From assembly GCA_016188775.1 (NCBI GenBank), contig JACPHC010000004.1:12704-76703 (forward strand): a DNA stretch of 64,000 bases, given 5' to 3'. A program made the position numbers and the translations under genes. Position 1 is the first letter of the stretch, and every line of letters starts with the position of its first letter. Positions 1,021-59,000 of the stretch are shown piece by piece. Source of the stretch: Parcubacteria group bacterium (lineage in GTDB: Bacteria; Patescibacteriota; Minisyncoccia; JACPHC01). A model generated the notes under the pieces. That model saw only the letters and a program-made list of their open reading frames with translations, ran no database searches and had not been told where the DNA came from.

Positions 1021-4000
1021 TTACGGCGTGTAGCTGTAAGTCAATATGATTTTAGCGTTAAGAAGATAGACTGTTGAACCAGTGGCCGTGGGAGAGACGT
1101 GAAGCGTGTATTCTTTGGTGGTGTTGGAAACGCCATTTAAGTCAGTCACGGTTTCGCAAGCGTTGCAGGCTTGAGGAGAAGCGGTGAAAACACTGGTGGC
1201 GTCGTAGAGCAGTTTGAAAGGCAGAGCCGAGGCTGGAGAAGAGAAAGTGAACTGGGCTCCCGGATAAGCTCCATAGCCGGTCGCGCCAAGATTGCCTCTT
1301 TTTAATTTAAGATCCATAGTCTGATTGGTTCCGCCTTGGGTGGTGCCGTTGATTTCAATGGCCGCGGATTTAATTTGAATATTATTTTCCGGAATGCGAA
1401 TTCGGAATTTTTTGGTAATGGCCGGAGTGGCAATGGGAGTGGCAATGGGAGAGGTGGGATTCTTTTCCTGGAAGATAAAGAATTCAACTGTTTTGGAAGG
1501 ACTGGTAGTTCCAGTGGTCAAGGAACAGAAAGGAGTGGCTGAAGGATTGAGGGCCGGACCGTTGTTGGCGCTGTCTTTGGCTGAAACTCTGAAAAAGTAT
1601 TGAGTGGAAGCGGTCAGATTTAAAAGATTAATGGTTTTAGTAAGACCAGCCTCGTTTTCAGGAATGGAAAGCATTGATGAAAGAGCATTGGGAGTGGTTA
1701 AAGAGGAATCAGTATCATACTCAATTTGGGCCGAGATTGGATAAGAATTAGCCAGATCAGAGGCGTTGAATGAAATGTTGGCTGTGGAAGCGGTAACTCC
1801 GCTATAAGCGGTGCCGCAACTGCCGCCATTTAAATTGACAACAGGCGGAGTGGTATCAACCATAAAATCAGCCGATGTTTCAGGATTGCCGCCAAATGAA
1901 ACCCAATTGGAAAGAGTGTTATTGGTCCCGCCGACAGTATCGGACCTGACTCGGGCTTGCCAGTGATAGGAGGTGCCGGAGACAAGACCGGAAACCGTCA
2001 CTTGGCCGGTGGCTGTTCCGGTTGTCCAGAGAACTCCGGTTCCTTCAACAATACCTGTTCCGTCAAAAGCTTGAGCAATGGGTTTAACTTCCACTTGAGG
2101 ATAATAGGTTTGATTGGTTTTGCCTCCGGCCATAGACATTTTGAAAATAACCGAGGATTCATTAGTGGACCCAGCAGTGGTAATGGCGGTGGAGCCGTCA
2201 GTTCGGTACTGATTAAGAGCGGTCGGGTCAATTGGTTTAGCGTCCAGAACAGTGAAAGGAGAATAACTGCCTGAACCAACTGAATTAGAAGCCACGACTG
2301 TCCAATTGCCTAAAAGTTTGTCAGTCAAATCAAAACCGCAGCCGGTCATTGAAGTGGAGCTGGCAAAAGCGCAAGCCGGGGAACTTAAAATATCGGTTTG
2401 ACTGGTCGTAGCCAATTTAACCAAAGTGTCAGCGGTGAAATTAGCGCCAGTGATAGAGACGCTGGAGATTGTTCCGTTATCAAAACCGGAAGAAGGAGAA
2501 ACGGAAGTGACAACCGGGGCAGTGGCTCGGACTTCAAAGCCGGTAGTTGAACCGTCTCCGAATTCTCCGATTTGGGTGTCTTGATTAGTCACTCGAGCTT
2601 TATAAAAACCGAGGGAAGCCGCGTTTAAATTAAAAGTGCCGGTAATGGAAGTGTAAGCGGTATTTATAGTTACGCTCGCGCCGGGGATGGCGAGAACGCC
2701 GGAACAATTATCGGTTAAACATTTAACGTATTTTAAATCATTCGTTGCCAATACTCCATTATTCGTTTCTTTATAAGCAATTTTTGCCAATCCGTCCGTG
2801 GAATCTAAAACTAAAGAAGCGAAACTGCCGGTAAAAGCATCAGTATCGCATCCTGAAAGAGTACAACCCGTATCGCCATCAAGAGTTTTTACAACTCCCG
2901 CGGAACAATTGGCGTCATTGCATCGAGCAAATCTCAATGATGATTCAGTCGAATATTTATAATAAGCAATCGCGGGATATTGATTTGAATCTAAAATCAA
3001 AGAAGGAGTATCATTAGGGCTTAAAATAGCCGTGCTTGTAGTGCAGCCGGATAAAACGCATCCGGCAATACCGTCAAGATTTACAACCGTTGCTCCGGTG
3101 CAGGCTGTGTTTGGACAACGAATATATCTAAGAGGATTGATTGAAACAATTCTGGCAAGATTATCAGAACCTAAAGCCATTGATGAATTATTTGATGAAC
3201 TGATGTCCGTAGAAACTCCGACCGCGCAATTGGCGTCAGAGCAACTGATAAATCTATTATCGAAAACAACTCTTCCAAAATCGTCTGCCGGATTTAAGGC
3301 AAGCGATATAGAATTAGCATTATAGCCAGCTCCGCAGCCGGTTAACGCGCAGCCTGTTCCGCTAATTGGCGTAATAATTCCTGAAGCGCAATTAATATCG
3401 GCGCATTTGGCATACTTAACCTGAGAAGTGGCGGGGTCTCCGTAAACAATCCTGGGAAATCCATCAGATCCAACGGCTATGGATGTAAACCGCCCCGAAT
3501 CTCCAGTGGCGCAATTAGTTAAAACACATCCGGTGTTGCCGTCAAGAAGATTCATTACGCCGGTTGAGCAATCTAAATCAGCGCAGCGAATAAATTTAAG
3601 ATCTAAATTTGAATCTTGATAAGCAATTCTGGCAAAACCGTCGGCGGAACCTATGGCAATCGAAGGATAACTGCCCGCCGCTGTTAACGTGCTGCATCCC
3701 GTAATTTTACAATTGGATCCGCCGTCAAGAGTCCTAATAATTCCGGCGCTGCAATTACTATTAGCGCAGCGAATATATTTAAGAAAACCAGCGCCACTAG
3801 CGGGACTATCGTTTTGATAAACTATTCTTGAAAATCCGTCTTGGCCTAAAATATTTTTAATATAGCTCCCCTGATTATTAGCAGTAAAGATTTCAACTGC
3901 GTTCCTAACAACGCTAACGCAATCTATGTCAACGCAACGAATATAATTCAAGTGTGGCGAAGATCCTATTGGATTAACTACAAACACAACTCTTAAAAAA

Positions 4001-6711
4001 TTACCAGAACCAAACGCAAGCTCCGCAACGCTCATAGGATTAGAGGCGTAAGTTAGAACGCCGCCAGAAATATTACCGGTAAATACTCCGGCGGAGCAAT
4101 CTTCGGCTGAACAATGAAAATATTTTAAAGGAAAAGGAGAAGCGTTGGCTAGACGATAAACAATTCTGGCAAAACCGTCGTCGGAACCTTTAATGCCGCG
4201 TATATTGGTTATGCTTAAAGCGCCGGTGTCGCATCCCGTTATAACGCAAGAAGGTCCATCAACCACTGTTATAGCGCCAGTCGAGCAATTTAAATCCGAA
4301 CATTTAGCGTATCTAAGATTAGAATTGGTAGAATCCAGATAGCTTATTCGGGCAAACCCATCATTGGCAATAAAAATAGAATTATATACTCCCGGGTCGC
4401 TCGTTGTACTGCAGCCGATTAAACCGCAGCCAGTCTCGCCGTCTATTTTTTGAACAAGACCGCTAGCGCAATCTAGATGAGTGCAGTTGATATATCTCAA
4501 TCCTGTTTCTCCTCCTCCCGTTGTAAAAATAATTTTTCCAAAATCATTTGAAGCAAGAGCAAATGACGGATTTCCCGCGCCATTCCCGGTGGAAACACTG
4601 CAGTCAGTTAACACGCACCCCGACCCCGCGACACTTGTTATAACGCCTGAAGAGCAACCAATATCAAAACAACGACTAAAATTAATGCTGCTAGAGCCAG
4701 TCCTTCTATTATGAACAATTCTGGCAAAACCGTCGGAACCTTTAATTATAGAGGTGAAACTTGTGCCATTTGCGCCATTTGTTGCGCAATTGGTTAAGAC
4801 GCAACCCGTAACGCCATCAAGAATGGCAACTGTGCCGGTTGAGCAATCTAAATCAGCGCAATGAGCATATTTTAAAATTCCAGATGTATAGGATGTATAA
4901 CTAATCATTGCAAATCCATTATTATCAAGAGTTATGGAATTGTAATGGCCTGTATTTTCAGCGGTATTGCAGCCGGTTAAAACGCAACCCGTTCCGCCAT
5001 CTAAAAGAGCGGCGGTATAGTCAGTGCAGTCTATATTTTTACATCTGACATATTTAAGATCGCCATTGGTGTCATCTCTATAACTTATTCGGGCAAATCC
5101 ATCAGTGGCAAATATTGTAAGCGATGGCGTCGCTAATATTTTACCGCTACCACTATTTTCACAGTCAGTTAATAAACAGCCGGTATTTCCATCTAAAAGA
5201 TTAACCGTACCTTCGGCGATCGTCTTCCTCAACTCCATCTTGGGCTTATTATTAACCATATCATCCGTGTCAATTCCGGCGCCGTTAAAAGTAATAGATT
5301 TGGCCGTTTCATTGTTAATTCCAAAAGTCGGAGCCACGCTGGTGACAGTTGGAGCGAAAATGGTAAAAGAACGGGTATTGGAAGTACCAGTGATTGGAGT
5401 GGAACGGGAAACAGAAATGGTTCCGGTGATGTTGGTTGATCCTTCCTGTCCCGGCACTCGGACGGCGATACAAGTATTAGTGTAAGCCGAGCCAGCGCAT
5501 TTGGTTGAGCCGGTAATTTGGGTGGCGGCTGAAGCGTTAATGGTAATAGCCCCAGCGGTTCCAAAATGATCTCCATTTAAAGCAATGACTTTGCCGATTT
5601 GATCATCCGGAGTCGTGTCTATTTGACCCGGACCTTCGATTGTTCCGGCATCATCAGCAATAGAGCAAAGACGGGGCAGAATCGTGAAAGCGAAATTAGA
5701 TGATTGGCCGGAAACAGTGACTGTGATGTTTCCGGAAATTCCGGCGTCAGAGGGAATCGCGGTGGTTATAGCCGCGTCAGTCCAATTAGTGGTTGGAGAA
5801 ACAACGATATTAGCGGAGCCATTGATGGTTAAAGTTGAAGCGTCTTGAGTGGCGCCGAAACCAGCGCCGTTGATTGAGATAGTGTCTGATTGTCTGGCTG
5901 AAGCAATACCGCTAGCAATGGATGAACCAGTCGGACAAGTAGTTTCGGCTCCAGCCTCGGTCAAGTCAACTGTTGTAATAGCCGGTCCGACGGAAAAATC
6001 CGGCGTTGTCATTTTCGTCCGGTCAGCGTCAGCCAGTTCCGAGCCTTCAACAATAAAATTGAGAGTTCGGCCGGAACTTACAACAGTGTTATGATCCCAA
6101 ACTTCAAGATAAAGATATTCGTTGGCTAAAGTAAAAGGGCCGACGGAAGAAGAGGCGGTGTTGATGGTGGAGGCGCCTCCGGTCCACCAATCAACGGCGG
6201 TCGGATCATGAGAGAAAAGAAGAACCGCTCCGGTTAAAGAAGTGTCCTGGGGAACTCGAAAAACCTGGAAGGCCGGATGAGAGGTGACGTTGGCTCTGTT
6301 GTCGGTTTTTCTGACATTGAAAGTCCAGGTTCCGGCGGCGAAAGTGCCGGACATTTGGGCGTTGGAAAACCAGCCGTAGGGTTGAGGCGTGGCTCCCGGA
6401 GTGCCGGTGGTAGTGCTTGTAACTCCCGGCCTGATAACGGTTTGGACAGCGGAAGCCGGAGAAGTAATAGCTGATGTGGTGTTTGAAGCTTGATCCGGAA
6501 CAGTTCCGTCTCTCATTATCCAAGTTCCGGCCATTCCGGAAACTTCCTGATGAAGATAAAAAGTTTTGACAGCGGCGTTAGCTGAATTTTTCTCAACGCT
6601 CACCTGCGGCGGGTTTTTGGATAAATCCAAAAAGACATCATAGGGAACCGCTGTCCCTAAAATGGATAAAGATAAAATTACGACCAGAGATAGTTTTTTA
6701 AAATAGTTCAT
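1021..6711 (-). CDS. giant secreted surface protein (1896 aa) with about 14 Cys-rich ~60-aa repeats, FN3-like and IPT/TIG-like domains
   Basis: N-terminal signal-like peptide MNYFKKLSLVVILSLSILGTA. Repeats of pattern LDGxTGCVLTxC...DGFARIxY...LKYxxCxDxDCSxG. FN3-like stretches (TSYHWQARVRS, TQYFFRVSAKDS). IPT/TIG-like (PVVTSVSPSSGFDNGTISSVSITGANF). Confidence 0.8.
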   Translation of the reverse strand: MNYFKKLSLVVILSLSILGTAVPYDVFLDLSKNPPQVSVEKNSANAAVKTFYLHQEVSGMAGTWIMRDGTVPDQASNTTSAITSPASAVQTVIRPGVTSTTTGTPGATPQPYGWFSNAQMSGTFAAGTWTFNVRKTDNRANVTSHPAFQVFRVPQDTSLTGAVLLFSHDPTAVDWWTGGASTINTASSSVGPFTLANEYLYLEVWDHNTVVSSGRTLNFIVEGSELADADRTKMTTPDFSVGPAITTVDLTEAGAETTCPTGSSIASGIASARQSDTISINGAGFGATQDASTLTINGSANIVVSPTTNWTDAAITTAIPSDAGISGNITVTVSGQSSNFAFTILPRLCSIADDAGTIEGPGQIDTTPDDQIGKVIALNGDHFGTAGAITINASAATQITGSTKCAGSAYTNTCIAVRVPGQEGSTNITGTISVSRSTPITGTSNTRSFTIFAPTVTSVAPTFGINNETAKSITFNGAGIDTDDMVNNKPKMELRKTIAEGTVNLLDGNTGCLLTDCENSGSGKILATPSLTIFATDGFARISYRDDTNGDLKYVRCKNIDCTDYTAALLDGGTGCVLTGCNTAENTGHYNSITLDNNGFAMISYTSYTSGILKYAHCADLDCSTGTVAILDGVTGCVLTNCATNGANGTSFTSIIKGSDGFARIVHNRRTGSSSINFSRCFDIGCSSGVITSVAGSGCVLTDCSVSTGNGAGNPSFALASNDFGKIIFTTGGGETGLRYINCTHLDCASGLVQKIDGETGCGLIGCSTTSDPGVYNSIFIANDGFARISYLDSTNSNLRYAKCSDLNCSTGAITVVDGPSCVITGCDTGALSITNIRGIKGSDDGFARIVYRLANASPFPLKYFHCSAEDCSAGVFTGNISGGVLTYASNPMSVAELAFGSGNFLRVVFVVNPIGSSPHLNYIRCVDIDCVSVVRNAVEIFTANNQGSYIKNILGQDGFSRIVYQNDSPASGAGFLKYIRCANSNCSAGIIRTLDGGSNCKITGCSTLTAAGSYPSIAIGSADGFARIAYQDSNLDLKFIRCADLDCSTGVMNLLDGNTGCVLTNCATGDSGRFTSIAVGSDGFPRIVYGDPATSQVKYAKCADINCASGIITPISGTGCALTGCGAGYNANSISLALNPADDFGRVVFDNRFISCSDANCAVGVSTDISSSNNSSMALGSDNLARIVSINPLRYIRCPNTACTGATVVNLDGIAGCVLSGCTTSTAILSPNDTPSLILDSNQYPAIAYYKYSTESSLRFARCNDANCSAGVVKTLDGDTGCTLSGCDTDAFTGSFASLVLDSTDGLAKIAYKETNNGVLATNDLKYVKCLTDNCSGVLAIPGASVTINTAYTSITGTFNLNAASLGFYKARVTNQDTQIGEFGDGSTTGFEVRATAPVVTSVSPSSGFDNGTISSVSITGANFTADTLVKLATTSQTDILSSPACAFASSTSMTGCGFDLTDKLLGNWTVVASNSVGSGSYSPFTVLDAKPIDPTALNQYRTDGSTAITTAGSTNESSVIFKMSMAGGKTNQTYYPQVEVKPIAQAFDGTGIVEGTGVLWTTGTATGQVTVSGLVSGTSYHWQARVRSDTVGGTNNTLSNWVSFGGNPETSADFMVDTTPPVVNLNGGSCGTAYSGVTASTANISFNASDLANSYPISAQIEYDTDSSLTTPNALSSMLSIPENEAGLTKTINLLNLTASTQYFFRVSAKDSANNGPALNPSATPFCSLTTGTTSPSKTVEFFIFQEKNPTSPIATPIATPAITKKFRIRIPENNIQIKSAAIEINGTTQGGTNQTMDLKLKRGNLGATGYGAYPGAQFTFSSPASALPFKLLYDATSVFTASPQACNACETVTDLNGVSNTTKEYTLHVSPTATGSTVYLLNAKIILTYSYTP

Positions 6712-8676: not shown

Positions 8677-8740
8677 AAATTGAGCTAATTTTAGCGTTAT
8701 TTACTAATTTCTATCTATAATTTCTATCTATTTAAAGAAT

Positions 8741-8784
8741 AAACTTACATATTTACGGACGATCGTCCGTAAATATGTAAGTTT
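8741..8784. promoter_or_regulatory. perfect 44-bp palindrome centred on CGATCG (AAACTTACATATTTACGGACGATCGTCCGTAAATATGTAAGTTT)
   Basis: Reverse-complement identity checked by eye. Shares the core TTACGGACGATCGTCCGTAA with 40198-40243. Confidence 0.7.
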
Positions 8785-8794
8785 AATAAATTTT

Positions 8795-9355
8795 TTATTG
8801 AAGATGAAATCTATTTTTTAAATCCAAATCGATGTCTGTTTCTTTAACAATTAAAAATCTTGCATAAGCTCTCAAATTAAAAAATTCAATCACGAAATCA
8901 ATTTCATTTTTGCATTCATAAGGATAAATAAAAACGCTTTTTTGCAAAGGATAAAAACCTAATTGTTTTAATTGAAAAGTTAAAGCATTTCTTTCGCGTC
9001 TTAAACGTTCGGGAATATCAAAAATTACCACTCTCCATAATTTATCCCAATGGGGTGGTTTTTTAATTCGCATTGTTTTTAAATTATATCGCAAAAATTC
9101 TTTTTTGCCTTCTCTGTTTAAAACTAAACTAACTGTTCCGTCTTTATTTTCTTGATAATTAATTAATTTTGACCGATAAAGACGATGAATAGATTCTCTC
9201 AGACTACGATAATTAATTTTCTGCCATTCTTTGATAGCGGATTTTAAAATTCGAAAATAAGAATCTGGTCTGCGCGTTAAAGATAAAGCAACTCCCGTGC
9301 CTAACAAAATAATAATTTTTCTAGCCACCGGTCCCAATCTTTTTTTATTTGACAT
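8795..9355 (-). CDS. winged-helix plus Cas2-fold domain protein (PaaX-like putative regulator)
   Basis: The C-terminal segment VVIFDIPERLRRERNALTFQLKQLGFYPLQKSVFIYP resembles the Cas2/PaaX-C core. There is no cas1 and no repeat array nearby. Confidence 0.5.
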   Translation of the reverse strand: MSNKKRLGPVARKIIILLGTGVALSLTRRPDSYFRILKSAIKEWQKINYRSLRESIHRLYRSKLINYQENKDGTVSLVLNREGKKEFLRYNLKTMRIKKPPHWDKLWRVVIFDIPERLRRERNALTFQLKQLGFYPLQKSVFIYPYECKNEIDFVIEFFNLRAYARFLIVKETDIDLDLKNRFHLQ

Positions 9356-9407: not shown

Positions 9408-9521
9408 TATTTCAATGATATTTCAATATTTTTAAAATTTTTAAATTTACATGTTTATTTACGATCGTCCGTAAATATGTAAATTTTAAAAATAATATTG
9501 AATATTGAAATGGAATGGAAA
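9408..9521. repeat. long imperfect inverted repeat (~55-bp arms) centred on ACGATCGTCCGTAAATATGTAAATTT
   Basis: Left arm tttcaatgatatttcaatattttt...acgatcg pairs with right arm cgatcg...aataatattgaatattgaaatgg. Confidence 0.6.
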
Positions 9522-11452: not shown

Positions 11453-13162
11453 TTATTCTCTAATGACGCGTAAAATTTCTTCAATGGTCGTAATGCCGGC
11501 CTCGACTTTAGCCAGTCCGTCTTCAAACATTGTCATCATCCCCTCTTTCCTCGCTTGTTTTCTTAAATCTTCAATAGTCCATTCGCTGTTGATGATTTCG
11601 CGCATGGCCGGAGTAACGGTTAACACTTCAAAAATAGCGACTTGCCCTTGATAGCCGACGGAACATTCGGGACAAGTGCCGGATTTATAAAGCAACTCCG
11701 GAATCGCGTAAGTAATTTTTTCTTTGGGATACAAAATGGCAAACTGGTCTTGAATCGCTTTTTTTATCTCGGGCGAGACGGGATAAGATTCAATGCAAGA
11801 TTGGCAAATTTTCCGCACTAAACGTTGGGCGATAATTAAATTAAGCGTCGTTGACATTAAAAATTTCGGCACGCCGATATCGGTCAGACGCGGAATGGAG
11901 GTAATGGCGTCATTGGTGTGCAAAGAAGAAAGAAGAAGATGACCGGTCAGGGCCGCGTTAACGGCGATCTCGGCGGTTTCCAAATCGCGAATTTCACCGA
12001 CCATCAGAATATCCGGGTTTTGCCTGAGAAGCGAACGCAGACCGGTGGCGAAAGTAATGCCGGCTTTAACGTTCACTTGCGTCTGGTTGAGCCGGGGAAC
12101 GTCGTATTCAATCGGGTCTTCAACGGTGGAAATATTAACTCCGGGTTTATTTAAAAGATGCAAAATGGCGTAAAGCGTGGTTGTCTTGCCGGAGCCGGTC
12201 GGACCGGTGGAAAGAATCATTCCGTGCGATTTAGTGATGGCGTCTTTAACAATCGCTAAATTCTTACCCACCATCCCCAACTCTTCCAAGTTAAGAGGCC
12301 GGGCCGCTCCTCTCAATAATCTCAAGACCGATTTTTCGCCGTGAAAAGTCGGCATTACCGAAACCCGAACGTCAACGGCTTCATCCTCAAATTTAAACTT
12401 GAAACGGCCGTCTTGAGGTTTAAAATGTTCGTCAATGGCGAGATTGGACAGAATTTTAATCCGGGCGGTTAAAGCCGGATGAAGTTCTTTGGGCAATTCG
12501 GTGATATCTTTTAAAATACCGTCAATCCGATAACGAACAATTAGTTTTTCGGCCGTGCGTTCAAAATGAATATCCGAAGCCCGGCTCAAAACCGCGAATT
12601 CAATAATGGAATCAATGATGGTGACAATGGGAATGTTTTCCGCCAAACGTTCCAGTGTCGCCGTTTCCGGAGAAGCGATTAAAGCTTTTTTAATATTTTC
12701 TTCAATAATTATTTCAAATTGCTTGGAAATATCGCCTTTATAAAAACGAAGAGCGTGAATAATATCCGCGGCCGTGGCCAAATAAACTTCAATTTCAGAG
12801 CCGGTTTTAAAACGGAGATATTCAATGAGTTTGATATCGCCCGGATCCTGCATCGCCACTTTCAGTTTAGATTCCGATTGGTCAAAAACGGCGATGCCGC
12901 GAGTTTTGGCGAAATCTTCCGGAATCATCCGAAGAACTTCCATATTGATTGTTCTTCGGGTCAGTCCGGCCATTGGAACACCGTAAAATGTCGAAAGCAA
13001 TTCAAAAAAATAAGACTCGGGAACGTCGCCACGCCCGATGAGAACATTTTCGATTTTTTGACCCGCCCGATGAGCTTCGGTTTTGGCCGACTCAAACTCT
13101 TTGACGGACACCAAACCGCTTTCCACGATCATTTTCCTTAATTTTCGCTCTGGGATAGGCAA
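11453..13162 (-). CDS. pilB: type IV pilus assembly ATPase (GspE/PilB family)
   Basis: Walker A GPTGSGKTT, Walker B/Asp box ILMVGEIRD, and a C-terminal tetra-Cys motif CQSC...CPEC. Confidence 0.92.
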   Translation of the reverse strand: MPIPERKLRKMIVESGLVSVKEFESAKTEAHRAGQKIENVLIGRGDVPESYFFELLSTFYGVPMAGLTRRTINMEVLRMIPEDFAKTRGIAVFDQSESKLKVAMQDPGDIKLIEYLRFKTGSEIEVYLATAADIIHALRFYKGDISKQFEIIIEENIKKALIASPETATLERLAENIPIVTIIDSIIEFAVLSRASDIHFERTAEKLIVRYRIDGILKDITELPKELHPALTARIKILSNLAIDEHFKPQDGRFKFKFEDEAVDVRVSVMPTFHGEKSVLRLLRGAARPLNLEELGMVGKNLAIVKDAITKSHGMILSTGPTGSGKTTTLYAILHLLNKPGVNISTVEDPIEYDVPRLNQTQVNVKAGITFATGLRSLLRQNPDILMVGEIRDLETAEIAVNAALTGHLLLSSLHTNDAITSIPRLTDIGVPKFLMSTTLNLIIAQRLVRKICQSCIESYPVSPEIKKAIQDQFAILYPKEKITYAIPELLYKSGTCPECSVGYQGQVAIFEVLTVTPAMREIINSEWTIEDLRKQARKEGMMTMFEDGLAKVEAGITTIEEILRVIRE

Positions 13163-15721: not shown

Positions 15722-15746
15722 TATGAAATATATTTTCTAGTTTAAT

Positions 15747-15768
15747 AAGTATCCTAAAAATTTTTAGG
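15747..15768 (-). promoter_or_regulatory. pilus-associated promoter-like motif (rc CCTAAAAATTTTTAGGATACTT) oriented toward the pilin gene 14846-15547
   Basis: Contains the 16-bp palindrome CCTAAAAATTTTTAGG plus a -10-like GATACT. Confidence 0.4.
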
Positions 15769-15810: not shown

Positions 15811-15832
15811 TCAAAAATTTTTTAGAATACTT
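15811..15832 (+). promoter_or_regulatory. pilus-associated promoter-like motif (TCAAAAATTTTTTAGAATACTT) oriented toward 16038
   Basis: Same motif family, with -10-like TAGAAT. Confidence 0.4.
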
Positions 15833-15867
15833 ATTTAGCATTATACCACAAATTATAATCGTCAAGC

Positions 15868-18314: not shown

Positions 18315-18348
18315 GTTTTTTGGAAAAATAAAAAAAATATAAAATTTG

Positions 18349-18369
18349 CTAAAAAATTTTAGGATACTT
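18349..18369 (+). promoter_or_regulatory. promoter-like motif CTAAAAAATTTTAGGATACTT
   Basis: Same family as above, but between convergent genes. Its role is unclear. Confidence 0.3.
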
Positions 18370-18381
18370 TTAGATGAACAT

Positions 18382-20394: not shown

Positions 20395-20417
20395 ATTTTC
20401 CTAATTTAAAAGGTGTT

Positions 20418-20438
20418 CTAAAAATTTTTAGGATACTT
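20418..20438 (-). promoter_or_regulatory. promoter-like motif CTAAAAATTTTTAGGATACTT, ~25 bp upstream of the 18382-20394 gene
   Basis: Exact match to the motif family. Confidence 0.35.
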
Positions 20439-20440
20439 TT

Positions 20441-20490
20441 TTTATTTATTTCCAATATACTGGTATACCAGTATATTGGAAATAAATAAA
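20441..20490. repeat. perfect 50-bp palindrome (TTTATTTATTTCCAATATACTGGTA | TACCAGTATATTGGAAATAAATAAA) directly after the pilin gene stop
   Basis: Perfect reverse-complement symmetry read directly. Candidate long hairpin terminator or attenuator. Confidence 0.7.
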
Positions 20491-20491
20491 A

Positions 20492-20960: not shown

Positions 20961-22019
20961 TTATCTGGCTCCGATTCGGCCGATTAATTGATAAATCGGA
21001 GCGATAATCGTAATCACTATCAAAGCCACTAAAGTTCCGACGACAACAATCAAAAGAGGCTCAATCAAAGTTGATAAAGTCTTCAAAATGTTGGCGGCTT
21101 TTCTTTCATAAAAAACGGCTAAATCAATCAGCACTTGATCCAGATTGCCGGATTTCCAGCCCACGGCCACGGCTGAACGGTACATTTGAGGAAAAAGATC
21201 GGGCCAAGCGCCTAAAGCCATGTCCAAAGAAACGCCCTTGGAAACATCGTCTTTAATAACCGGCATAGCGGACCGATAAACCGGGTCTTCAAAAACATTG
21301 GCGGCCAGCTCCAGCGACTCCAGTATCGGAATGCCGGAGGCAAAAAGCAAACTCAAGGTTCGGGCGTATTTGGCCAGATTAACGGCTTGAACCAATTTGT
21401 TGATTCCGGGCAGGCGTTTAAAAAAAGAAAATATAACGAGACGAACCGGTTTTAAAACCCGCCAGACAAAAACAAAAACGAGAACAATAAAAATTAAAAA
21501 TAAAATGGAACTTAAAATATTCCGGCTCAAAATCGCCGAGATGGAAAATAAAATCTGGGTGTAGACAGGAACTTTTAATTGAAGTTTGGCGAAAACGGAC
21601 GCCACCCGAGGAATGACAAAAAGAAAAATGAAAAATAAAATAACGATGGCCAGTCCCAAAACTAAAAGAGGGTAAAAGGCCGCGGCTTGAAGATTTTTTT
21701 TGATATTGTAGGAATTTTCCAGCTCTTCTGCCAAAAAACTGATGTTGCGATCCAAGGTGCCGCTTTGCTCGCCGGCTCGAATCGCGGCCGTGAAAACTTT
21801 GTCAAAATACCGAGGGTGATCTTCAAAACTTTCAGTCAAGCTTTTGCCGCTGGAAATGGAAACGAGCATCGCCTGAAAAACTTTTTTAGCTTCCCGGCTT
21901 TCCGCTTCCACTGATAAAATTTCAAAAATCTCGATTAAATTAAGTCCGGATTTCAAAAGCAGATGAAAATTCTTTAAAAAATTTATCCGCTCAAGTAGTG
22001 AAAATTTTTTAGTAAACAT
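20961..22019 (-). CDS. pilC: second GspF/PilC-family platform protein
   Basis: 352 aa with a TM pattern and GspF-like repeats (LSTLIEPLLIVVVGTLVALIVITIIAPIYQL). Confidence 0.85.
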   Translation of the reverse strand: MFTKKFSLLERINFLKNFHLLLKSGLNLIEIFEILSVEAESREAKKVFQAMLVSISSGKSLTESFEDHPRYFDKVFTAAIRAGEQSGTLDRNISFLAEELENSYNIKKNLQAAAFYPLLVLGLAIVILFFIFLFVIPRVASVFAKLQLKVPVYTQILFSISAILSRNILSSILFLIFIVLVFVFVWRVLKPVRLVIFSFFKRLPGINKLVQAVNLAKYARTLSLLFASGIPILESLELAANVFEDPVYRSAMPVIKDDVSKGVSLDMALGAWPDLFPQMYRSAVAVGWKSGNLDQVLIDLAVFYERKAANILKTLSTLIEPLLIVVVGTLVALIVITIIAPIYQLIGRIGAR

Positions 22020-22057
22020 TTTTCTCTATAATAAAACAAAATAGAAATTTCAGCAGT

Positions 22058-22245: not shown

Positions 22246-23910
22246 TTATAAAACTCTTAAAACTTCTTCAATCGTTGTCAGGCCCGCGTCCACTTTTTCA
22301 AGGCCGTCCTCAAAAAGCGTCGTCATTCCTTCTTTTTTCGCTTGCGTCAAAATTTTTTGATCCGCCTCTCCTCTGAAAATCATTTGCCGGATAGCGTCGC
22401 TGAATTTCAAAACTTCAAAAATACCGATGCGGCCCTGAAAACCCGAACCGCCGCATTGAGGGCAACCCGTGCCGTGAAAAAACTGCCGGCCTCCAAGACT
22501 GACGCCGAATTCTTTTTCCGCCGCCTCTAAAACCAAAGGCGACGGCTGGTAAGAGCCGATGCAAACCAAACACGGCCTCCGAACCAAACGTTGGGCAATG
22601 GCCGCGTTCAAAGTTGAACTCAAAAGAAAGGGCCGAATTTTCAAATCCAGCAGTCTTGTTAAAGACCCAATAGCGTCTTGAGTGTGCAAAGTGGATAGAA
22701 CCAACTGGCCGGTCAGGGCGGCGTGAATGACAATTTCAGCCGTTTCTTCATCCCTGATTTCTCCGACCATAACTATATTGGGGTCGTGGCGCAAAATCGA
22801 GCGCAGACCAACGGCAAAATCAATGCCGGTTTTAGGATTAACCTGAATCTGATTGAGACGGGGAATGGTGTATTCAATCGGGTCCTCAATAGTCTCAATG
22901 CTGACTCGGGGATTATTCAAAACATTAATCATATTATAAAGAGTCGTTGTCTTGCCGGAGCCGGTTGGGCCGACCACTAAAATCAAACCGAATGATTTTT
23001 TGAGTTCTTCTTGAACAATCTCCAGTTGTCGGCCGGAAAGTCCGGTTTCTTCCAAATTCTTCGGCCGGCCTAATTCCGAAAGCACTCTCGTTTCAATGCT
23101 CTCCCCTTCTTCGGTCGGCAAAATGGAAACCCTGACGGAAACTTTTTCTTTTTGAAAAGAAAAAGTGAAACGGCCGTCTTGAGGCTGATAATGTTCGTCT
23201 ATTTTCAAATTGGCCAAAATTTTAATTCGGGCCAACAAAGGGTCGTAAATTTTGGGCGGCAGTTTCAAAACGTCAAAAAGCGCGCCTTCAATTCTTAACC
23301 GGACGATAATCTCTCCCAAAAATTTATCAATATGGATATCGGAGGCGCCTTTGGCGGCGGCGTAGGTTAAAATCAAATCCAGGATTTTCACCACCGGCGC
23401 TTCTTTGGCCCCTTGTTCCCCGGTTGCCTTGACCGCGGCGATTGATTTTTCAATCAGGGACGGAAGCTGTTTTTCAAAATTTTGAAAATAAAGCCCGAGA
23501 GCGTAATTAAAAGAACCTCGGGTCATAAAATAAGAAGTAACTTCGCTTCTGGTTTTTTTTCTGACCAATTCAATCGCTTCCAAATCTTTCGGATTTTCCA
23601 TTGCCAGAAAAACTTTTTTATCTTCTTTTTTAAAAACAATAATATGATATTCTTCGGCGATTTCTTGCGGGACTAAATTTAGGATTTCCAGGGGTATTTG
23701 AGTTCTTTTTAAATCAATATAAGGAACTTTAAAATACCAGCCGGCCACTTCGCCGAAATATTTTTCCGCGATTATTCCTTTTTCAATTAAAACATCCAAA
23801 AGATTTTTTCCCAGCGTGCCCGCGGTTTCTTCGGCCAAACGCATTTCTTCTTCCGGAACGATTCCTTGGCCGATAAGAATTTGTTTTATGTCATCATTTG
23901 AAAGAATCAT
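22246..23910 (-). CDS. pilB: second GspE/PilB-family pilus assembly ATPase
   Basis: Walker A GPTGSGKTT, MVGEIRD box, tetra-Cys CLVC...CPQC. Confidence 0.92.
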   Translation of the reverse strand: MILSNDDIKQILIGQGIVPEEEMRLAEETAGTLGKNLLDVLIEKGIIAEKYFGEVAGWYFKVPYIDLKRTQIPLEILNLVPQEIAEEYHIIVFKKEDKKVFLAMENPKDLEAIELVRKKTRSEVTSYFMTRGSFNYALGLYFQNFEKQLPSLIEKSIAAVKATGEQGAKEAPVVKILDLILTYAAAKGASDIHIDKFLGEIIVRLRIEGALFDVLKLPPKIYDPLLARIKILANLKIDEHYQPQDGRFTFSFQKEKVSVRVSILPTEEGESIETRVLSELGRPKNLEETGLSGRQLEIVQEELKKSFGLILVVGPTGSGKTTTLYNMINVLNNPRVSIETIEDPIEYTIPRLNQIQVNPKTGIDFAVGLRSILRHDPNIVMVGEIRDEETAEIVIHAALTGQLVLSTLHTQDAIGSLTRLLDLKIRPFLLSSTLNAAIAQRLVRRPCLVCIGSYQPSPLVLEAAEKEFGVSLGGRQFFHGTGCPQCGGSGFQGRIGIFEVLKFSDAIRQMIFRGEADQKILTQAKKEGMTTLFEDGLEKVDAGLTTIEEVLRVL

Positions 23911-23949
23911 TTGACGCTAAAATTAGATTTTTGGTATACTTATTTAAGT

Positions 23950-23977
23950 AAGTATCTTAAAAATTTTTAGAATACTT
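23950..23977. promoter_or_regulatory. bidirectional promoter-like palindrome AAGTATCTTAAAAATTTTTAGAATACTT between divergent pilB and pilin genes
   Basis: Motif family member in both orientations. A variant CTAAAATTAGATTTTTGGTATACTT lies at 23915-23940. Confidence 0.4.
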
Positions 23978-24022
23978 ACTTGTCGTTAATTTATAATAAA
24001 AAGCGAAGCTTTTGATTAAATT

Positions 24023-31270: not shown

Positions 31271-31323
31271 ACTAATCAATAATCCAAATAAATATACTTT
31301 TACAAAGTATATTTATTTGGATT

Positions 31324-34069: not shown

Positions 34070-35525
34070 CGCAGTCCGCAGAAGACGAGCGAAGGCGGGG
34101 GAATAAAATCAACGGAAGATGACGACCGACAAGTAATGTCTATTGAAGCGCAACTTTTTGAACTGCGAGAATACGCGCGTAAAGAAAATCTTGAAATTCT
34201 GGAGGAATTTCAAGAGTCGAAAAGCGCAAAGACACCCGGACGAGAAATCTTCGGCGAGATGATGGCGAAAATAGAAAGTGATGGAGATTTTGGCATACTC
34301 GCGTGGCACCCCGATCGCCTTGCGCGTAATAGTATTGACGGAGGACGCATTATCTACACCGTAGATCAGAAGAAAATAGTGTCTTTGCGTTTTCCGACAT
34401 TTTGGTTTGAACCAACCCCGCAGGGGCTCTTTATGTTGCAAGTGGCGTTCGGATGCGTCGTAAAGAATGGCTGGGACTTGCGCCTTTCGGATACCAAAAC
34501 AATCCACTTATTCGTAATATTGAACCGCACCCGACCGAAGCGCGTATTGTTAAATTAGCGTTTGAGGAATATGCGAAAGGCGTACACTCTTTTGTTTCTC
34601 TCGCGCAATTTTTGGCGGACCTCGGCGTTGTCTCAAAAAATAGAATGCCACTTGCCAAAGCTTCCATCAAACGACTTTTAACGAACAGAGCATATCTCGG
34701 CTTTTTGAAACACAAAGGAGAATGGTTTGATGGAAACTTTGAACCAATTCTTTCTCCCGCATTGTTTGAAGCCGTGCAGAAAATTTTGAAAACGAAAGAG
34801 CGGCCGCGCCACCGCCGCGCTCGGCACGATTTCCCATTTACCGGATTATTCCGGTGTGCCGAGTGCGGCTCAATGATTAGCGCGCAATGGGCGGTCAATC
34901 GCTGGGGTACAAAATATCGCTACTATCGCTGTTCAAAAAAGCGCGGCCGCTGTCCGCAACCATATATTCAAGAGGCGGAGTTGGCGCGGCAAATCAAGGC
35001 ACGGCTTCAAACAATCTCGCTTTGCGACAATCTCACCGATTGGATGTTGGAAAAAGTAAAAAGTTGGGAGCACGAGGAAATCGGAGCGTCGCAAAGCGAG
35101 GTTCAAAATCTTTCCGAAAATATTAAAACGGCAGAAGCGAGGATGGAAAAGCTGGTTTCCACTTATCTTGATGGCGACATTCCCAAACAAACTTATCTCA
35201 AAAAGAAAGATGAAATTTTACTCGCTTCTGCCGTTTTGGAGCAAAGGAAAAAAGATTTTGAAAACGGGAGAAAAAATTGGGTCGAACCCCTGCGGGAATG
35301 GATTTTAGATACGAAACAGGCCGATTTTTTGAGCACATCGAATGATTTTCACCAAATCAAAACATTTGTTCAAAAAATCGGAACGAACCCTCGGGTTCGT
35401 AACAAATCCGCCGTCTTTGATTTTTGCCCAGCCAGCCAGTTCGCCGCGAAGCGGCGAGGGATTTTGCGGAGCGCGGCCGCCTCGCGGCCGCGCGGAGCAA
35501 CCCTTTCAAATCGTGAAGTTTCTAT
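34070..35525 (+). pseudogene. large serine recombinase: frameshifted, without an in-frame start codon, and with a degenerate catalytic motif
   Basis: Resolvase-domain remnant (IKSTEDDDRQVMSIEAQ...DRLARN) with no start codon upstream. Frame shift near 34440-34460. Recombinase plus zinc-ribbon domain (FRCAECGSMIS...YYRCSKKRGRCPQP) in the second frame. The track ORF runs on through the tRNA only because no stop codon intervenes. Confidence 0.7.
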
Positions 35526-35615
35526 TGGCGGAGGCGGTGAGATTCGAACTCACGATGCCCTTTCGGACATACTTGCTTTCCAAGCAAGCGCACTAGGCCG
35601 CTATGCGACGCCTCC
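35526..35615 (-). tRNA. tRNA-Ser (anticodon GGA), class II with long variable arm, CCA encoded
   Basis: rc sequence GGAGGCG-TC-GCATAGCGGCCTAGTGCG-CTTGC-TTGGAAA-GCAAG-TATGTCCGAAAGGGCATC-GTGAG-TTCGAAT-CTCAC-CGCCTCC-G-CCA folds as a cloverleaf. Confidence 0.85.
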
Positions 35616-35715
35616 AATAGATTGGATTATATAGTTTAAAATCGGGAAAATCAAACGATATCAGTATTACATATTGATATTTTTTTTGTTATAATAAATA
35701 TAATCAATAAAAAAC

Positions 35716-38010: not shown

Positions 38011-38099
38011 ATTCAATCATTTGTCATTGCGAGAAGCGAAGCGACGAAGCAATCTCTATAATCAGCCAAGAAATGAGATTGCTTCGGCGATTCCATCGC
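38011..38099. repeat. MITE-like foldback repeat, copy 4
   Basis: TGTCATTGCGAGAAGCGAAGCGACGAAGCAATCTC...GAGATTGCTTCGGCGATTCCATCGCCTCGCAATGAC. Confidence 0.8.
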
Positions 38100-38157
38100 C
38101 TCGCAATGACGATTGTTTCGCAATATTTCAAAAATCCGTTTCCGAAGCTTTAACTAT

Positions 38158-38772: not shown

Positions 38773-40200
38773 ATGAAATTTCCAAAATTAAAATTACTTC
38801 CGACATTTATCATCGCTTCAGGAACGATTTTTTTGCTTTTGACTATTATCATTATTCAGATAGCCGAACCGCTTCTTAAAAATAATTTTCTGGAAGAAAT
38901 AGGACAAAACACGGTCGTTTTTGTCAACCGACTGGCTAACACCGTTCTTGTCCAAAAAAATTTTGAAGATTACGGCTCAGAGGAATCTCAAAAAAATTTC
39001 CGCGAATTCAGGCGCGCGCTAGTCGTGCCGAATTTAGCCAGATTAAAAATCTGGAATCCCGAGGGCGTGATTATTTTTTCCGACGAGTCCAGACTACAAG
39101 GGAAAAAGTTCGCCAACTCATTCGCTCTCGAAGCTTTGGATCTTTCAGTCAAAAATAAACTCATCAATACTCTGGAACTGGCGATCGAAACGAACGAATA
39201 CGCTTTTGACAAAGGCATCGGCCAAGTCTTTGATATGGCCGTGCCGATTACTTTCGGCCTCTCCAGAAAACCAATCGGCATTGTCGAGGTTTTTATCCGC
39301 ACCGGCCCATTGGAAACAAGAATCGCCGATTTTAGGTTTGCGCTGGCGACCAGAATATTTATCGCCACGACTCTTTTTTTCATAATTTTAACCGGCATTA
39401 TTGTCCGGGCTTCAAAAACAATCCGCGATCAGCAAAACGAGCTTAATAAATACGCCAGGGAGCTTGAAGAAAAAGTGCTGGAACGGACAAAAAACCTTGA
39501 AGAATCTCATCGAAAAGAAAATATGCTCAAAGATCAGTTTGTTTTCATTATTTCCCACGAATTATCAACGCCGGTAACCGCGATATCTTGGAATATCAGC
39601 TCTTTGAAAAAAAGCAAAACATTGGAATCTTTGAGTCCAGACGCTCAAGAAATGTTTGATAATTTGGAAAAAAACACAATGACGCTATGGAGAATAATCA
39701 GAAATATTGTCCAAATTCACCGCGGCGAACTGGGCAAAATCCAAATATCCAAATCTGAATTTGATATTCACGCTCTTGCCAAAGAAATAATTAAAAACAA
39801 TCAAGCCTTTGCCCAACTGAAAAAAGTAAAACTTGCCTACGAGGACGAGGGCGAGCCTTTAACGATCAAATCCGATCCGGAAAGAATCAAAGAAGTTTTA
39901 AACAATTTAATATCAAACGCGATACAATTTAACGGCCAGGGAGGCAAAGTCAACGTGAAAATGAATAAAAATGATTCTGAAATCGTCTTTAACGTCGAGG
40001 ACACCGGAATAGGAATAAGCGAAGAAGAAAAGCCGAAGGTTTTTGAAAAATTCTGGCGATCCGAAGACGCGGCTAAAATCGAAGGCTCCGGCCTCGGTTT
40101 ATTTATATCTAAATTTATCGTCGAAACGATGGGCGGAAAAATTTGGTTTGAATCTAAAAAAGCCATTGGCTCGACTTTTTCTTTTTCTTTGCCCATTTAA
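38773..40200 (+). CDS. sensor histidine kinase
   Basis: H-box FVFIISHELSTPVTAI. ATPase boxes DTGIGISEEE and GSGLGLFISKFIVETMGGKIWFES. Confidence 0.85.
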   Translation: MKFPKLKLLPTFIIASGTIFLLLTIIIIQIAEPLLKNNFLEEIGQNTVVFVNRLANTVLVQKNFEDYGSEESQKNFREFRRALVVPNLARLKIWNPEGVIIFSDESRLQGKKFANSFALEALDLSVKNKLINTLELAIETNEYAFDKGIGQVFDMAVPITFGLSRKPIGIVEVFIRTGPLETRIADFRFALATRIFIATTLFFIILTGIIVRASKTIRDQQNELNKYARELEEKVLERTKNLEESHRKENMLKDQFVFIISHELSTPVTAISWNISSLKKSKTLESLSPDAQEMFDNLEKNTMTLWRIIRNIVQIHRGELGKIQISKSEFDIHALAKEIIKNNQAFAQLKKVKLAYEDEGEPLTIKSDPERIKEVLNNLISNAIQFNGQGGKVNVKMNKNDSEIVFNVEDTGIGISEEEKPKVFEKFWRSEDAAKIEGSGLGLFISKFIVETMGGKIWFESKKAIGSTFSFSLPI

Positions 40201-40243
40201 ATTTACACCTTTACGGACGATCGTCCGTAAAGGTGTAAATTTA
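40198..40243. promoter_or_regulatory. perfect 46-bp palindrome centred on CGATCG (TAAATTTACACCTTTACGGACGATCGTCCGTAAAGGTGTAAATTTA) between convergent genes
   Basis: Shares the 20-bp core TTACGGACGATCGTCCGTAA with 8741-8784. Overlaps the kinase stop codon. Confidence 0.7.
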
Positions 40244-47197: not shown

Positions 47198-47239
47198 TTC
47201 ACTACAATAGTATTACGATCGTAAGTTCATTGTAGTGAA
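47198..47239. promoter_or_regulatory. CGATCG-centred imperfect palindrome, family 2 (TTCACTACAAT-N6-ACGATCGT-N6-ATTGTAGTGAA)
   Basis: 11-bp arms and the ACGATCGT core match. The 6-nt internal segments are non-complementary. Confidence 0.6.
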
Positions 47240-48691: not shown

Positions 48692-48747
48692 CAAAATTTT
48701 ACTACAATCAATAATACGATCGTGAGCTTCATTGTAGTAAAATTTTG
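48692..48747. promoter_or_regulatory. CGATCG-centred imperfect palindrome, family 2 (CAAAATTTTACTACAAT-N7-ACGATCGT-N7-ATTGTAGTAAAATTTTG)
   Basis: 17-bp arms match perfectly. Lies between convergent rpsR and recA. Confidence 0.65.
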
Positions 48748-52398: not shown

Positions 52399-52446
52399 AT
52401 TTTCACTACAATGCATTCACGATCGTGAGTTGATTGTAGTGAAAAT
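52399..52446. promoter_or_regulatory. CGATCG-centred imperfect palindrome, family 2 (ATTTTCACTACAAT-N6-ACGATCGT-N6-ATTGTAGTGAAAAT)
   Basis: 14-bp arms match. Lies between the ftsK start and the rpoC stop. Confidence 0.65.
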
Positions 52447-56043: not shown

Positions 56044-59000
56044 TTAAGATAAATTTTTTAACGCTTCTCTTTTTACCGCTTTCATTTCTTTTTCTTGTTC
56101 TTTCTTCTCTTCTTCCTCTTTCGGCATCTCAACTTTTTTCTCAATCAATTCGACATTCAAAGACAATCCTTTAAGTTCATTAACGAAAACGTTAAACGAG
56201 GCCGGCAAATTTTGAACTCGGATTTTTTCGCCGGAAATAATCGCGTCATAAGCGGCGGAGCGGCCATGGACATCGTCCGATTTAATTGTCAGCATCTCCT
56301 GAAGCGTATGCGAAGCGCCGTAACCTTCCAAAGCCCAAACCTCCATTTCTCCAAATCTTTGTCCGCCAAATTGAGCTTTACCGCCGAGCGGCTGCTGGGT
56401 AATCAGAGAATAAGGACCAATGGAGCGCATATGAATTTTATCTTCCACTAAATGATGCAGCTTCATAATGTAAATATGGCCGACTGTCACTTTATTATCA
56501 AAAAGTTCGCCGGTTCGGCCGTCGTAAAGAGAGACTTTCCCATCCTCTGGCATTCCGGCTTTCTTAAGCTCGGCCCGAATTTCTTCTTCGCTGACACCCG
56601 AAAGGGCCGGGGTAATAGCCTGATAATTCATCTTTTTGGCAATCCAGCCCAGATGAGTCTCGAGAATCTGGCCGAGATTCATTCGGGAAGCGACCGATAA
56701 CGGATTTAAAATAATGTCAATCGGCCGGCCAGTTTCCAAATACGGCATATCTTCCTCGGGAAGAATTTTTGAAATAACGCCTTTATTGCCGTGCCGACCG
56801 GCCATTTTGTCGCCAACGGAAAGTTTTCTTAATTGAGCCACTTCAACTTTAATCTGTTTAATAACTCCGACCTCAAGCTTATCGCCTTTTTCCCTGGAAA
56901 AAATTTTCACTGAAATCACCCGACCGTGCTTGCCAAACGGCAAAGCTAGAGACGTATCTTTGACATCGCGCGCTTTTTCGCCGAAAATAGCCCGCAAAAG
57001 CCTTTCTTCGGAAGTCAAATCCGCTTCTCCTTTGGGTGAAATTTTACCAACTAAAATATCTCCGGCCCTGACTTCCGCTCCAATCATCACGATTCCTTCT
57101 TCATCAAGATTTTTCAATCGTTCTTCGGAAACATTGGGAATGTCGCGAGTGGTAATTTCCGGACCAAGTTTCGTGTCTCTAACGTCAACGGTAAAATCTT
57201 CAATATGAATTGAAGTATAGCGATCGTTTTTCAAAATACGCTCGGAAATAACGATGGCGTCTTCAAAATTAGATCCGAAAAACGAAACAAAAGCGCAAAG
57301 AATATTTTGCCCCAAAGCCAGCTCACCTTTATCCGTGGCAATGCCATCGGCGATTACATCCCCTTTTTTAACCTCCTGCTTTTTTTTAACAATCGGCCGA
57401 TTGGTAATAGCGGTGAAAGCGTTAGATCTTAAAAAATTATTCATTTTATAAACTTTGGACTCCGGCTTTTTTCCTTTGGATTTGATGATAATCTGATTGG
57501 CGTCAACCGCCGCGACTTCGCCGTCAATATCGGAAACAATGACTCGGCCGGAATCGCGCGCGGCTTTGGCTTCCACTCCCGTAGCCACCACCGGAGCTTG
57601 AGGACGAATGCAAGGCACGGCTTGACGCTGCATATTTGAACCCATCAGAGCGCGATTGGCGTCGTCATGTTCAAGAAACGGAATTAAACTTGTGGCGATA
57701 CTGATTGACTGCTGCGGGGCGACATCCATATAATTAATCTCTTTTTTTGAAACAATCGTCGGCTTGCCTTTGACTCGCGCTTCAACAATCGGCGCCAAAA
57801 TACGCCCCTCTTGATCATAAGGAATTCCGGCGTGAGCGATATTAAATTCCGACTCTTCTAAAGCGTTAAGATAAACAATCTCTTTAGTAATCAGTCCTTT
57901 TTCAACTTTAATATACGGCGTTTCAATCAAGCCCAGCTCATTAACTCGGGCGTAAGAAGCGAAATGGCCAACCAAGCCGATATTCGGACCTTCCGGAGTC
58001 TCAATCGGGCAAATACGGCCATAGTGGGACGGATGCACGTCGCGAACTTCAAAACCAGCGCGCTCTCTAGTCAGACCGCCCGGGCCCATGGCTGAAAGCC
58101 GTCGTTCATGCTCAAGCTCCGAGAGCGGATTAACCTGATCCATAAACTGGCAAAGCTGGGAAGAAGTGAAAAATTCTTTCACCGAAGCCATAAAATGCCG
58201 AGTATTAATCAATTGAGCCGGCGTCAAAGTGTAAATATCAAAAGTGGACATGCGGTCGCGGATAATTCTGGTCAGGCGGCTAATGCCGAGCCTTAATTTC
58301 GTCTGCAAAAGCTCGCCCAAGGCCCGAACCCGACGGTTGCCCAAATGATCAATGTCATCAGGTTTAGCGTCCGGATCATTATTTAAACGAATAATTTCTT
58401 TAATAACCGCGACTATGTCTTCAAGATTCAAAACCCGCTTGTCCCGGCCAATTTCCTTGATATCTTTAACTCCCTTTTTAAATTTACTTAAGCGCTGATC
58501 TAATTTAAAACGGCCGACCGGAGAAATATCGTAACGCTCAAAACTGAACATTGATTCAATAAAACTTTTAGCCGTATCCGGCGTCACCGGCTCGCCGGGC
58601 CTTAAACGATGATAAATTTCAACAAAAGCCTCGGACTCGTCTTTCGCGCTATCGTGCGAAAGAGTGGATTTTATAAAATTAATTTCCGGATTTACGTCCA
58701 CTTCTTTAAAAGCATCCAAAATTTTTTCACCGGAACCCATGCCAAACATTTTCAAGAAAATAGTCGCCGGAATTTTTCTCTTGCGATCAATCTTGACGCT
58801 AATCACTCCTTGAGAATCGGTTTCAAATTCCAGCCAGGCGCCGCGATTCGGAATCAGTTTGGCGCCAAAAAGCTTGCGGCCCCTGGAAACTTCGGCGGTA
58901 AAAAAAACGCCGACCGAACGAATAAGCTGGGACACGACCACTCGTTCCACGCCATTGACGATAAAAGTTCCCCGCGGCGTCATTACCGGAAAATCCGTCA

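Follow-up and report, generated by a model that had tools for sequence, protein, structure and literature searches.

CGATCG-centred palindromes around a mini-PaaX gene as candidate operators of a Parcubacteria regulator

The CGATCG-centred palindromes of this Parcubacteria genome are probably the operators of an autoregulated, effector-less mini-PaaX repressor, which is encoded between two of them and is the candidate binder. The analysis covered a 64-kb stretch of DNA (the window) and homologous loci of other genomes. Zero-loop palindromes are concentrated at the ends of the mini-PaaX gene, many upstream sites overlap a promoter pattern directed toward the gene, the modelled protein has the fold of PaaX, and one base of the site changes together with two residues of the protein. 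From these observations we infer that mini-PaaX binds the sites, represses its own gene and contacts the co-varying base.

Palindromes in the 64-kb window

Four copies of one palindrome family (Family 1) were located in the window. They formed a single family in the repeat search (D5), and the centre was ACGATCGT in all of them. The common arm motif TTACA..TTT..C..ACGA, given in a sequence-only reading of the same DNA, was correct. That reading had placed a perfect palindrome of 44 bp at 8741–8784. The palindrome is perfect, and its true extent is 46 bp (8740–8785, arms of 23 bp, zero loop). This downstream site begins 10 nt past the mini-PaaX stop codon, is flanked by co-directional minus-strand genes according to the ORF calls, and contains no −35-like hexamer. 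Its fold as RNA reached −29.5 kcal/mol. The site at 9443–9486, located 5′ of the mini-PaaX gene, is the proposed autoregulatory operator. It had been described as a degenerate copy, and it belongs to one repeat family with the other three: it is of the same length, with four mismatches and no indel. The mismatches are at −5, −6, −7 and −12 from the dyad, all in the gene-proximal arm. The centre of this upstream site is 106 nt from the mini-PaaX ATG, farther than in any other locus, and its near edge is approximately 90 nt from it.

The two remaining copies are solo sites, and both were found to be perfect palindromes of the lengths first reported. The solo site at 40198–40243 (46 bp, zero loop, −32.9 kcal/mol as RNA) overlaps the TAA that ends a histidine kinase ORF, and an M48 peptidase gene converges on it from the other side. 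The solo site at 63218–63259 (42 bp, zero loop) has TTGAAA beside the centre on both strands. On the minus strand it follows a Pyr_redox_2 ORF at 54 bp and precedes a PolB-exo/RNase H-like exonuclease gene by 59 bp, these two neighbours being co-directional. The overlap with a stop codon noticed earlier is that of 40198–40243; two copies had been counted between convergent genes, and this one alone has that position in Family 1. Every Family 1 copy lies at most about 112 bp downstream of the 3′-end of some gene.

The Logan contigs L097–L100 are independent assemblies of the same organism and correspond to ~57600–63250. They stop 88 nt 5′ of the exonuclease gene, at the palindrome 63218–63259. 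Perfect palindromes seem to break these short-read assemblies. Such breaks matter for the contiguity of MAGs of the Patescibacteria (CPR).

Three imperfect ACGATCGT-centred sites, absent from the earlier reading, were grouped as Family 2. They are located at ~47198–47239 (5′ of the rpsF–ssb operon, divergent from a glycosyltransferase gene), at ~48692–48747 (between the convergent ssb and recA, −20.2 kcal/mol as RNA) and at ~52399–52446 (3′ of rpoC and 5′ of the ftsK–orf115–recA gene string). Their layout is TTCACTACAAT-N-ACGATCGT-N-ATTGTAGTGAA, with the outer arms TTCACTACAAT and imperfect inner arms. The arms are unlike those of Family 1, and the TACA box is displaced by 1 bp. The Family 2 sites bracket rpsF(S6)–ssb and ftsK–orf115–recA in a site–operon–site order, as around the mini-PaaX gene. 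The window contains no second PaaX-like gene, and the owner of the Family 2 sites may be an unseen paralogue outside it.

The window has a G+C content of 41%, and its intergenic DNA is AT-rich. The octamer ACGATCGT occurs seven times, always in an intergenic symmetric site (four of Family 1 and three of Family 2), and all seven sites have A at −4. At least 13 of 20 flanking positions were symmetric in 7/17 CGATCG sites, compared with 3/1139 sites on other palindromic hexamers. The mean number of such symmetric CGATCG sites in 200 Markov-1 simulations was 0.005, versus seven observed. Approximately 14 loci had inverted repeats with arms of 10 or more, versus 0–1 in ten mononucleotide shuffles. 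The shuffles and simulations indicate that the palindromes are not due to chance, and together with the comparison of hexamers they bear out the first assessment. The TTACANNTTTNCNNACGATCGTNNGNAAANNTGTAA pattern had no match in the representative-genome contigs, a set without this species.

CGATCG is a PvuI-type site containing GATC, and the centres used in other lineages (CTCGAG, GCGGCCGC and GCGATCGC) also resemble restriction sites. The sites could on this basis reflect a CGATCG-specific restriction–modification or methylation system, or an iterated palindrome of the HIP1 type. HIP1 of cyanobacteria is an 8-mer with thousands of copies, also inside genes. Its sequence, GCGATCGC, shares the CGATCG core, and some Parcubacteria lineages centre on exactly this sequence. 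Unlike HIP1, the element of the window is rare, intergenic and ~40 bp long. GCGATCGC was absent from the window, and CGATCG was not over-represented (17 occurrences versus ~24 in Markov-1 simulations); the HIP1 and restriction–modification readings were rejected on these counts. Symmetric arms of ~20 bp were present only on the seven ACGATCGT copies, non-palindromic centres (CGATAG and CTATCG, for example) are tolerated, and the PaaX-like protein varies together with the flanking base. We regard such an origin of the sites as extremely improbable.

Other repeats were observed in the window. Two long perfect palindromes do not belong to the CGATCG families: one (20440–20491, 52 bp, centre GGTATACC) abuts the stop codon of a pilin-like ORF, and the arms of the other (31281–31323) are 20 bp long and separated by 3 nt. 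The two resemble each other in their arms (TCCAA..ATATACT), and another factor may bind there. A repeated intergenic motif among the pilin-like (N_methyl) genes contains the palindrome CTAAAAATTTTTAG and then GATACTT (D12, D14, D16). Its copies are at 15733–15768, 15814–15843, 18338–18371, 20397–20440, 22001–22030 and 23936–23988, and it could be a common promoter or operator. The segments 11903–12466 and 22669–23232, 10.8 kb apart, share 72–73% DNA identity (D1, D7). They lie in ORFs of 569 and 554 aa, which are probably paralogous genes of the pilin-like region.

A 36-nt GC-rich intergenic repeat, GAGATTGCTTCGGCGATT(T/C)CATCGCCTCGCAATGAC, is present at 966–1001 and 38075–38110 with 97% identity (D11). 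The 1896-aa ORF at 1021–6711 (minus strand) contains diverged internal direct-repeat families at 2772–5200 (D2–D4, D6, D10), which points to a repeat-rich protein. The GC-rich palindrome GCGCGGCCGC-ctc-GCGGCCGCGC (35471–35493) adjoins the sole tRNA gene found (35529–35615). Both are inside a mechanically listed ORF of 393 aa (34453–35634), and for this reason the ORF is probably not a real gene.

The mini-PaaX protein and its association with the sites

The mini-PaaX gene (8795–9355, minus strand) lies between two Family 1 sites and encodes a protein of 186 aa, identical to the product with locus tag HYV52_01420 of a Parcubacteria-group MAG. The protein matched PaaX_M ("PaaX central Cas2-like domain", PF20803) with E = 1.7e-20 and 73.3 bits, against a cut-off of 24, and PF20803 was present in every homologue listed. 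Pfam gave no match for the N-terminal winged-helix part. The NCBIfam PaaX model scored 26.3 bits against a cut-off of 264.55 and aligned over positions 31–148 of 279. The Cas2 models stayed below their thresholds (Pfam PF09827, 18.9 versus 23.8 bits; TIGR01573, 21.3 versus 24.5 bits). The search of the PDB by sequence profile returned a weak Cas2 match and nothing else.

The AlphaFold2 model built from 61 diverse homologues had a pLDDT of 84, and that from 21 close homologues a pLDDT of 57. The model comprises three helices and a beta-hairpin wing (9–79), a linker helix, and a ferredoxin-like fold (107–182). The top PDB match in Foldseek was E. coli PaaX (8a39, 189 aligned columns), followed by Cas2 proteins, the PaaX-like structures 3l09 and 3kfw, and winged-helix proteins. 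The Cas2-like domain is followed immediately by the end of the chain (residue 186), and there is no PaaX C-terminal effector domain. The PaaX_M match, the modelled fold and the chain end indicate that mini-PaaX is a PaaX protein without the C-terminal effector domain.

Mini-PaaX has two parts in common with the PaaX repressor of E. coli and Pseudomonas: a winged helix at the N-terminus, followed by a Cas2-like domain (PF20803, 8a39). It differs in its length (186 versus ~305 aa) and in lacking PaaX_C, the domain that binds the effector phenylacetyl-CoA. No paa genes were found among the neighbours scanned, which were pilin-like proteins, histidine kinase, M48 peptidase, exonuclease, S6, SSB, RecA and FtsK. 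The C-terminal half of mini-PaaX resembles Cas2 in its ferredoxin-like fold, its FDI(P) Asp and its Q-K-S-V-F motif, but the protein falls below the Pfam and NCBIfam Cas2 cut-offs and the domain is fused to a winged helix. Cas2 is a scaffold in CRISPR spacer integration, whereas the role of mini-PaaX, judged from sequence comparisons, would be sequence-specific DNA reading. The direct-repeat scan of the window gave no CRISPR-like array.

The mini-PaaX family comprises 1,649 clusters at 50% identity (E ≤ 1e-10), nearly all of 180–200 aa. The named sources of the homologues are Parcubacteria and other Patescibacteria, and, unlike PaaX, the family is confined to them as far as seen. A search of the literature gave no prior account of these CPR proteins or of their sites.

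The association of the gene with the palindromes was analysed in 95 loci encoding homologues, 15 from representative genomes and 80 from metagenomes. In the 89 non-identical loci, the density of zero-loop palindromes was 2.57/kb within 50 bp of the gene ends, 0.84/kb at 50–100 bp and 0.02–0.06/kb beyond 200 bp, which is 50–100 times denser near the gene. CGATCG occurred at 3.24/kb in the 200-bp flanks and at 0.145/kb elsewhere, a 22-fold enrichment. Among the 71 loci with enough flank, a C(G/T)AT(C/A)G-centred site was present upstream in 40, downstream in 41 and on both sides in 29. Such a site was on neither side in 19/71 loci, some of which use CTCGAG or GCGGCCGC centres. Both sites of one locus have common arms, and the arms vary between genomes. 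The downstream sites contain no promoter and are present whichever orientation the next gene has. No neighbour gene was conserved across the 95 loci, so the conserved unit is site–gene–site. Conservation at orthologous positions, on which the sequence-only reading had staked its claim, was found in the form of this architecture. Solo sites were rare (7 in ~456 kb of other genomes), and the genes adjoining them were heterogeneous. The mini-PaaX gene and the palindromes belong together.

A unit of this kind could also be a (formerly) mobile cassette, of the RAYT/REP type or an IS with MITE-like solo copies, with the Cas2-like domain as a nuclease. The same palindrome brackets the gene in many genomes, solo copies are scattered in intergenic DNA, the neighbour genes vary greatly between loci, several MAGs have two paralogues, and D113, the Cas2 catalytic-type Asp, is invariant in the homologues. 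REP/RAYT systems likewise consist of a small gene flanked by a palindromic repeat, with dispersed intergenic solo copies that are often at gene 3′-ends. However, no transposase, HUH or integrase domain was found, and the fold is that of a DNA-binding regulator. Unlike a RAYT, mini-PaaX has no HUH/Y1 transposase domain (Y1_Tnp), only the PaaX_M and weak Cas2 matches. With only ~60–66% identity and different sites, the paralogues of one MAG are not recent copies. The REP/RAYT reading was rejected on this divergence and on domain content. The sites are also few, both in the window (four of Family 1 and three of Family 2 in 64 kb) and as solo copies elsewhere. They consist of operator-like boxes, the promoter of the gene itself is built into the upstream site, and the protein co-varies with a site base in the manner of a transcription factor. 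No relative of the mini-PaaX gene was found on viral contigs, and neither a target-site duplication nor an empty site was seen. The bracket pattern also surrounds the housekeeping operons rpsF–ssb and ftsK–recA. A mobile cassette is very unlikely in our judgement.

Site anatomy and the promoter of the mini-PaaX gene

In a profile of 220 half-sites counted outward from the dyad, the bases were AA at −21/−20, T-G-C at −17 to −15, T(T/A)T at −11 to −9, C at −7 and G at −4, followed by CGA. The family-wide symmetry was 0.8–0.95 at −4 and at −9 to −17, dipped to 0.5–0.8 at −5 to −8, downstream sites included, and was gone beyond −21. The conserved outer, inner and centre boxes and the dip between them indicate a protein binding site and not a continuous stem. 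The arm mismatches of the downstream sites were 50 G:T, 32 A:C and 148 other, with no G:U bias. These nearly random mismatch types point to a constraint on the DNA sequence rather than on RNA pairing.

The upstream sites contained a promoter pattern directed toward the gene (TTGnnn 0–3 nt past the centre, 16–18 nt, and TAnnnT) in 21/52 cases. The pattern was found in 0/52 upstream sites on the opposite strand and in 0/57 downstream sites on either strand. In the dyad-aligned upstream sites, a −35 of the TTGAAT/TTGCAA type follows CGATCG by 0–3 nt, and a TATAAT-like −10 is located 16–18 nt further on, at the outer edge of the gene-proximal arm. This position of the promoter puts the dyad near −40, with the −35 and the spacer both inside the site. 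A protein on the upstream site would exclude RNA polymerase, as far as the sequence arrangement can tell. In the window, 9443–9486 is abutted by TTAAAA (9444–9439), an 18-nt spacer and TATCAT (9420–9415), which is a weak, consensus-only match.

The palindromes might primarily act at the RNA level, as bidirectional intrinsic terminators or as hairpins that stabilise 3′-ends, and the proximity of the PaaX-like gene would then be secondary. The Family 1 copies are near gene 3′-ends, one of them between convergent genes, and the predicted RNA hairpins reach −20 to −33 kcal/mol with z of −7 to −11. The consensus scan marked 8740–8785 as terminator-like on both strands, and some homologous sites (L088, L029) resemble classical terminators with an A-run, a GC-stem and a T-run. 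Against this, terminators are not expected to be enriched 50–100-fold around one gene family, nor to co-vary with two residues of mini-PaaX. The symmetry dip, which the downstream sites share, and the lack of a G:U bias also argue for a different constraint. The upstream sites precede the predicted transcription start and contain the −35, the stem bases are AT-rich, and a clean U-tract is often absent. The sites had no match in Rfam, in which the tRNA was the sole find. We consider a primarily RNA-level function unlikely; a secondary terminator or roadblock role may apply to the downstream sites.

The sequence-only reading had offered a dimeric protein or a hairpin as the reason for the symmetry. 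The association in 95 loci, the promoter overlap and the covariation favour the protein, and the symmetry dip and the lack of a G:U bias speak against the hairpin as a general constraint. The perfect copies of this genome at gene 3′-ends could still have a hairpin role.

The three perfect copies of the window have 3–6 pairwise arm differences, all of them mirrored and none asymmetric, and the same pattern was observed in locus L016. Mirrored differences are the expected product of selection for pairing, which is a point for the RNA-level reading. Fully symmetric sites are expected at ~1%, a hand estimate from the family-wide symmetry values, and perfect symmetry clusters by lineage (the window, L016, L032, L071 and L082). 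Perfect symmetry over 42–46 bp exceeds the needs of binding and is not predicted by a plain operator model. We speculate that it arose from lineage-specific symmetrising, either by a quasipalindrome template-switch "correction" or by selection that additionally favoured a hairpin. Templated correction, through intramolecular switching of strands in replication, is established for quasipalindromes in E. coli.

E. coli PaaX has a 39-bp operator, TGATTC-N27-GAATCA, and at Px, the promoter of its own gene, it acts as a repressor through steric hindrance (PMC9493321). The mini-PaaX sites are similar in that they are long (~40 bp) with widely spaced inverted outer boxes, and in that one site overlaps the promoter of the regulator itself, in silico for mini-PaaX and at Px for PaaX (PMC9493321). 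They are unlike the PaaX operator in their strongly conserved centre (CGATCG), which is seemingly read by the Cas2-like domain, and in their presence on both sides of the gene.

Residue–base covariation and a possible operator code

In 63 non-identical gene/site pairs, residues 119 and 123 of the protein co-varied with the base at −4 of the site (z = 15.3 and 11.8; background ~4–5). This link is by far the strongest covariation between protein and DNA, and the background is phylogenetic. The base at −4 was G in 66/66 arms where the protein has K119 and D/E123, and A in 22/22 arms with R119 and D123. With K or R at 123 and any residue at 119, it was C in 38/38 arms. The protein of the window has R119 and N123, and for this combination the base was A in 6/6 arms, in agreement with the A at −4 of all seven window sites. 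The rule had almost no exceptions and spans 12, 3 and 4 clusters at 60% identity.

The changes were also placed on a neighbour-joining tree built without residues 114–125. The base and the residue class changed on the same branch 11 times, versus 3.4 expected, and five independent K-to-R changes were paired with G-to-A. Residues 119 and 123 are one turn apart in helix alpha-1 (DIPExxx[R/K]xxR[x]AL), which belongs to the Cas2-like domain. At the start of the same helix, E116 is nearly invariant; N takes its place (DIPN for DIPE) in loci L008, L011, L013 and L084, whose sites centre on CTCGAG or TACGTA. The PaaX/Cas2-like protein named earlier as the candidate binder gains strong computational support from the association, the promoter overlap and the two co-varying residues.

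In the proposed mechanism, mini-PaaX, with its winged helix-turn-helix and Cas2-like dimerisation domain, would sit as a dimer on the dyad. The two winged helices would contact the outer boxes at approximately ±15 to 21 (TTACA in this genome), and helix alpha-1 of the Cas2-like domain (E116, R/K119, R122 and residue 123) would read CGATCG and the ±4 base. Occupation of the upstream site, which covers the −35 and the spacer, would exclude RNA polymerase and lead to self-repression, as by E. coli PaaX at Px. The downstream and solo sites would be further binding sites, which could belong to a regulon, act as roadblocks or anchor DNA loops; their transcripts would also fold into very stable hairpins at the 3′-ends of genes. 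It counts against the operator model that a protein of 186 aa would need to cover ~40 bp as a dimer.

A further proposal concerns the whole family. The Cas2-like domain would be a module that reads the CGATCG core and the ±4 base through a simple residue-to-base code, and the family, Patescibacteria-specific and large (no fewer than 1,600 clusters at 50% identity), would consist of self-bracketed, effector-less autoregulatory units. We hold this proposal as tentative, and somewhat doubtful in its full extent. A Cas2-like domain that reads the centre of an operator appears to be new, if confirmed.

Almost nothing is known of transcriptional regulation in Patescibacteria, and mini-PaaX with its sites is a testable regulator–operator pair from a widespread family. 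In the predicted promoter architecture, the start site follows the dyad by ~40 bp, CGATCG directly adjoins a −35 resembling TTGAAT, and the −10 resembles TATAAT. The covariation suggests a possible part for the Cas2 fold in recognising DNA by its sequence. If this is true, a free-standing protein of the Cas2 fold recognises palindromic repeats beside its own gene, which bears on the recruitment of Cas2 to CRISPR repeats. The residue–base rule would predict operator centres from the protein sequence alone and, if it holds, would provide a predictable operator code for uncultivated bacteria.
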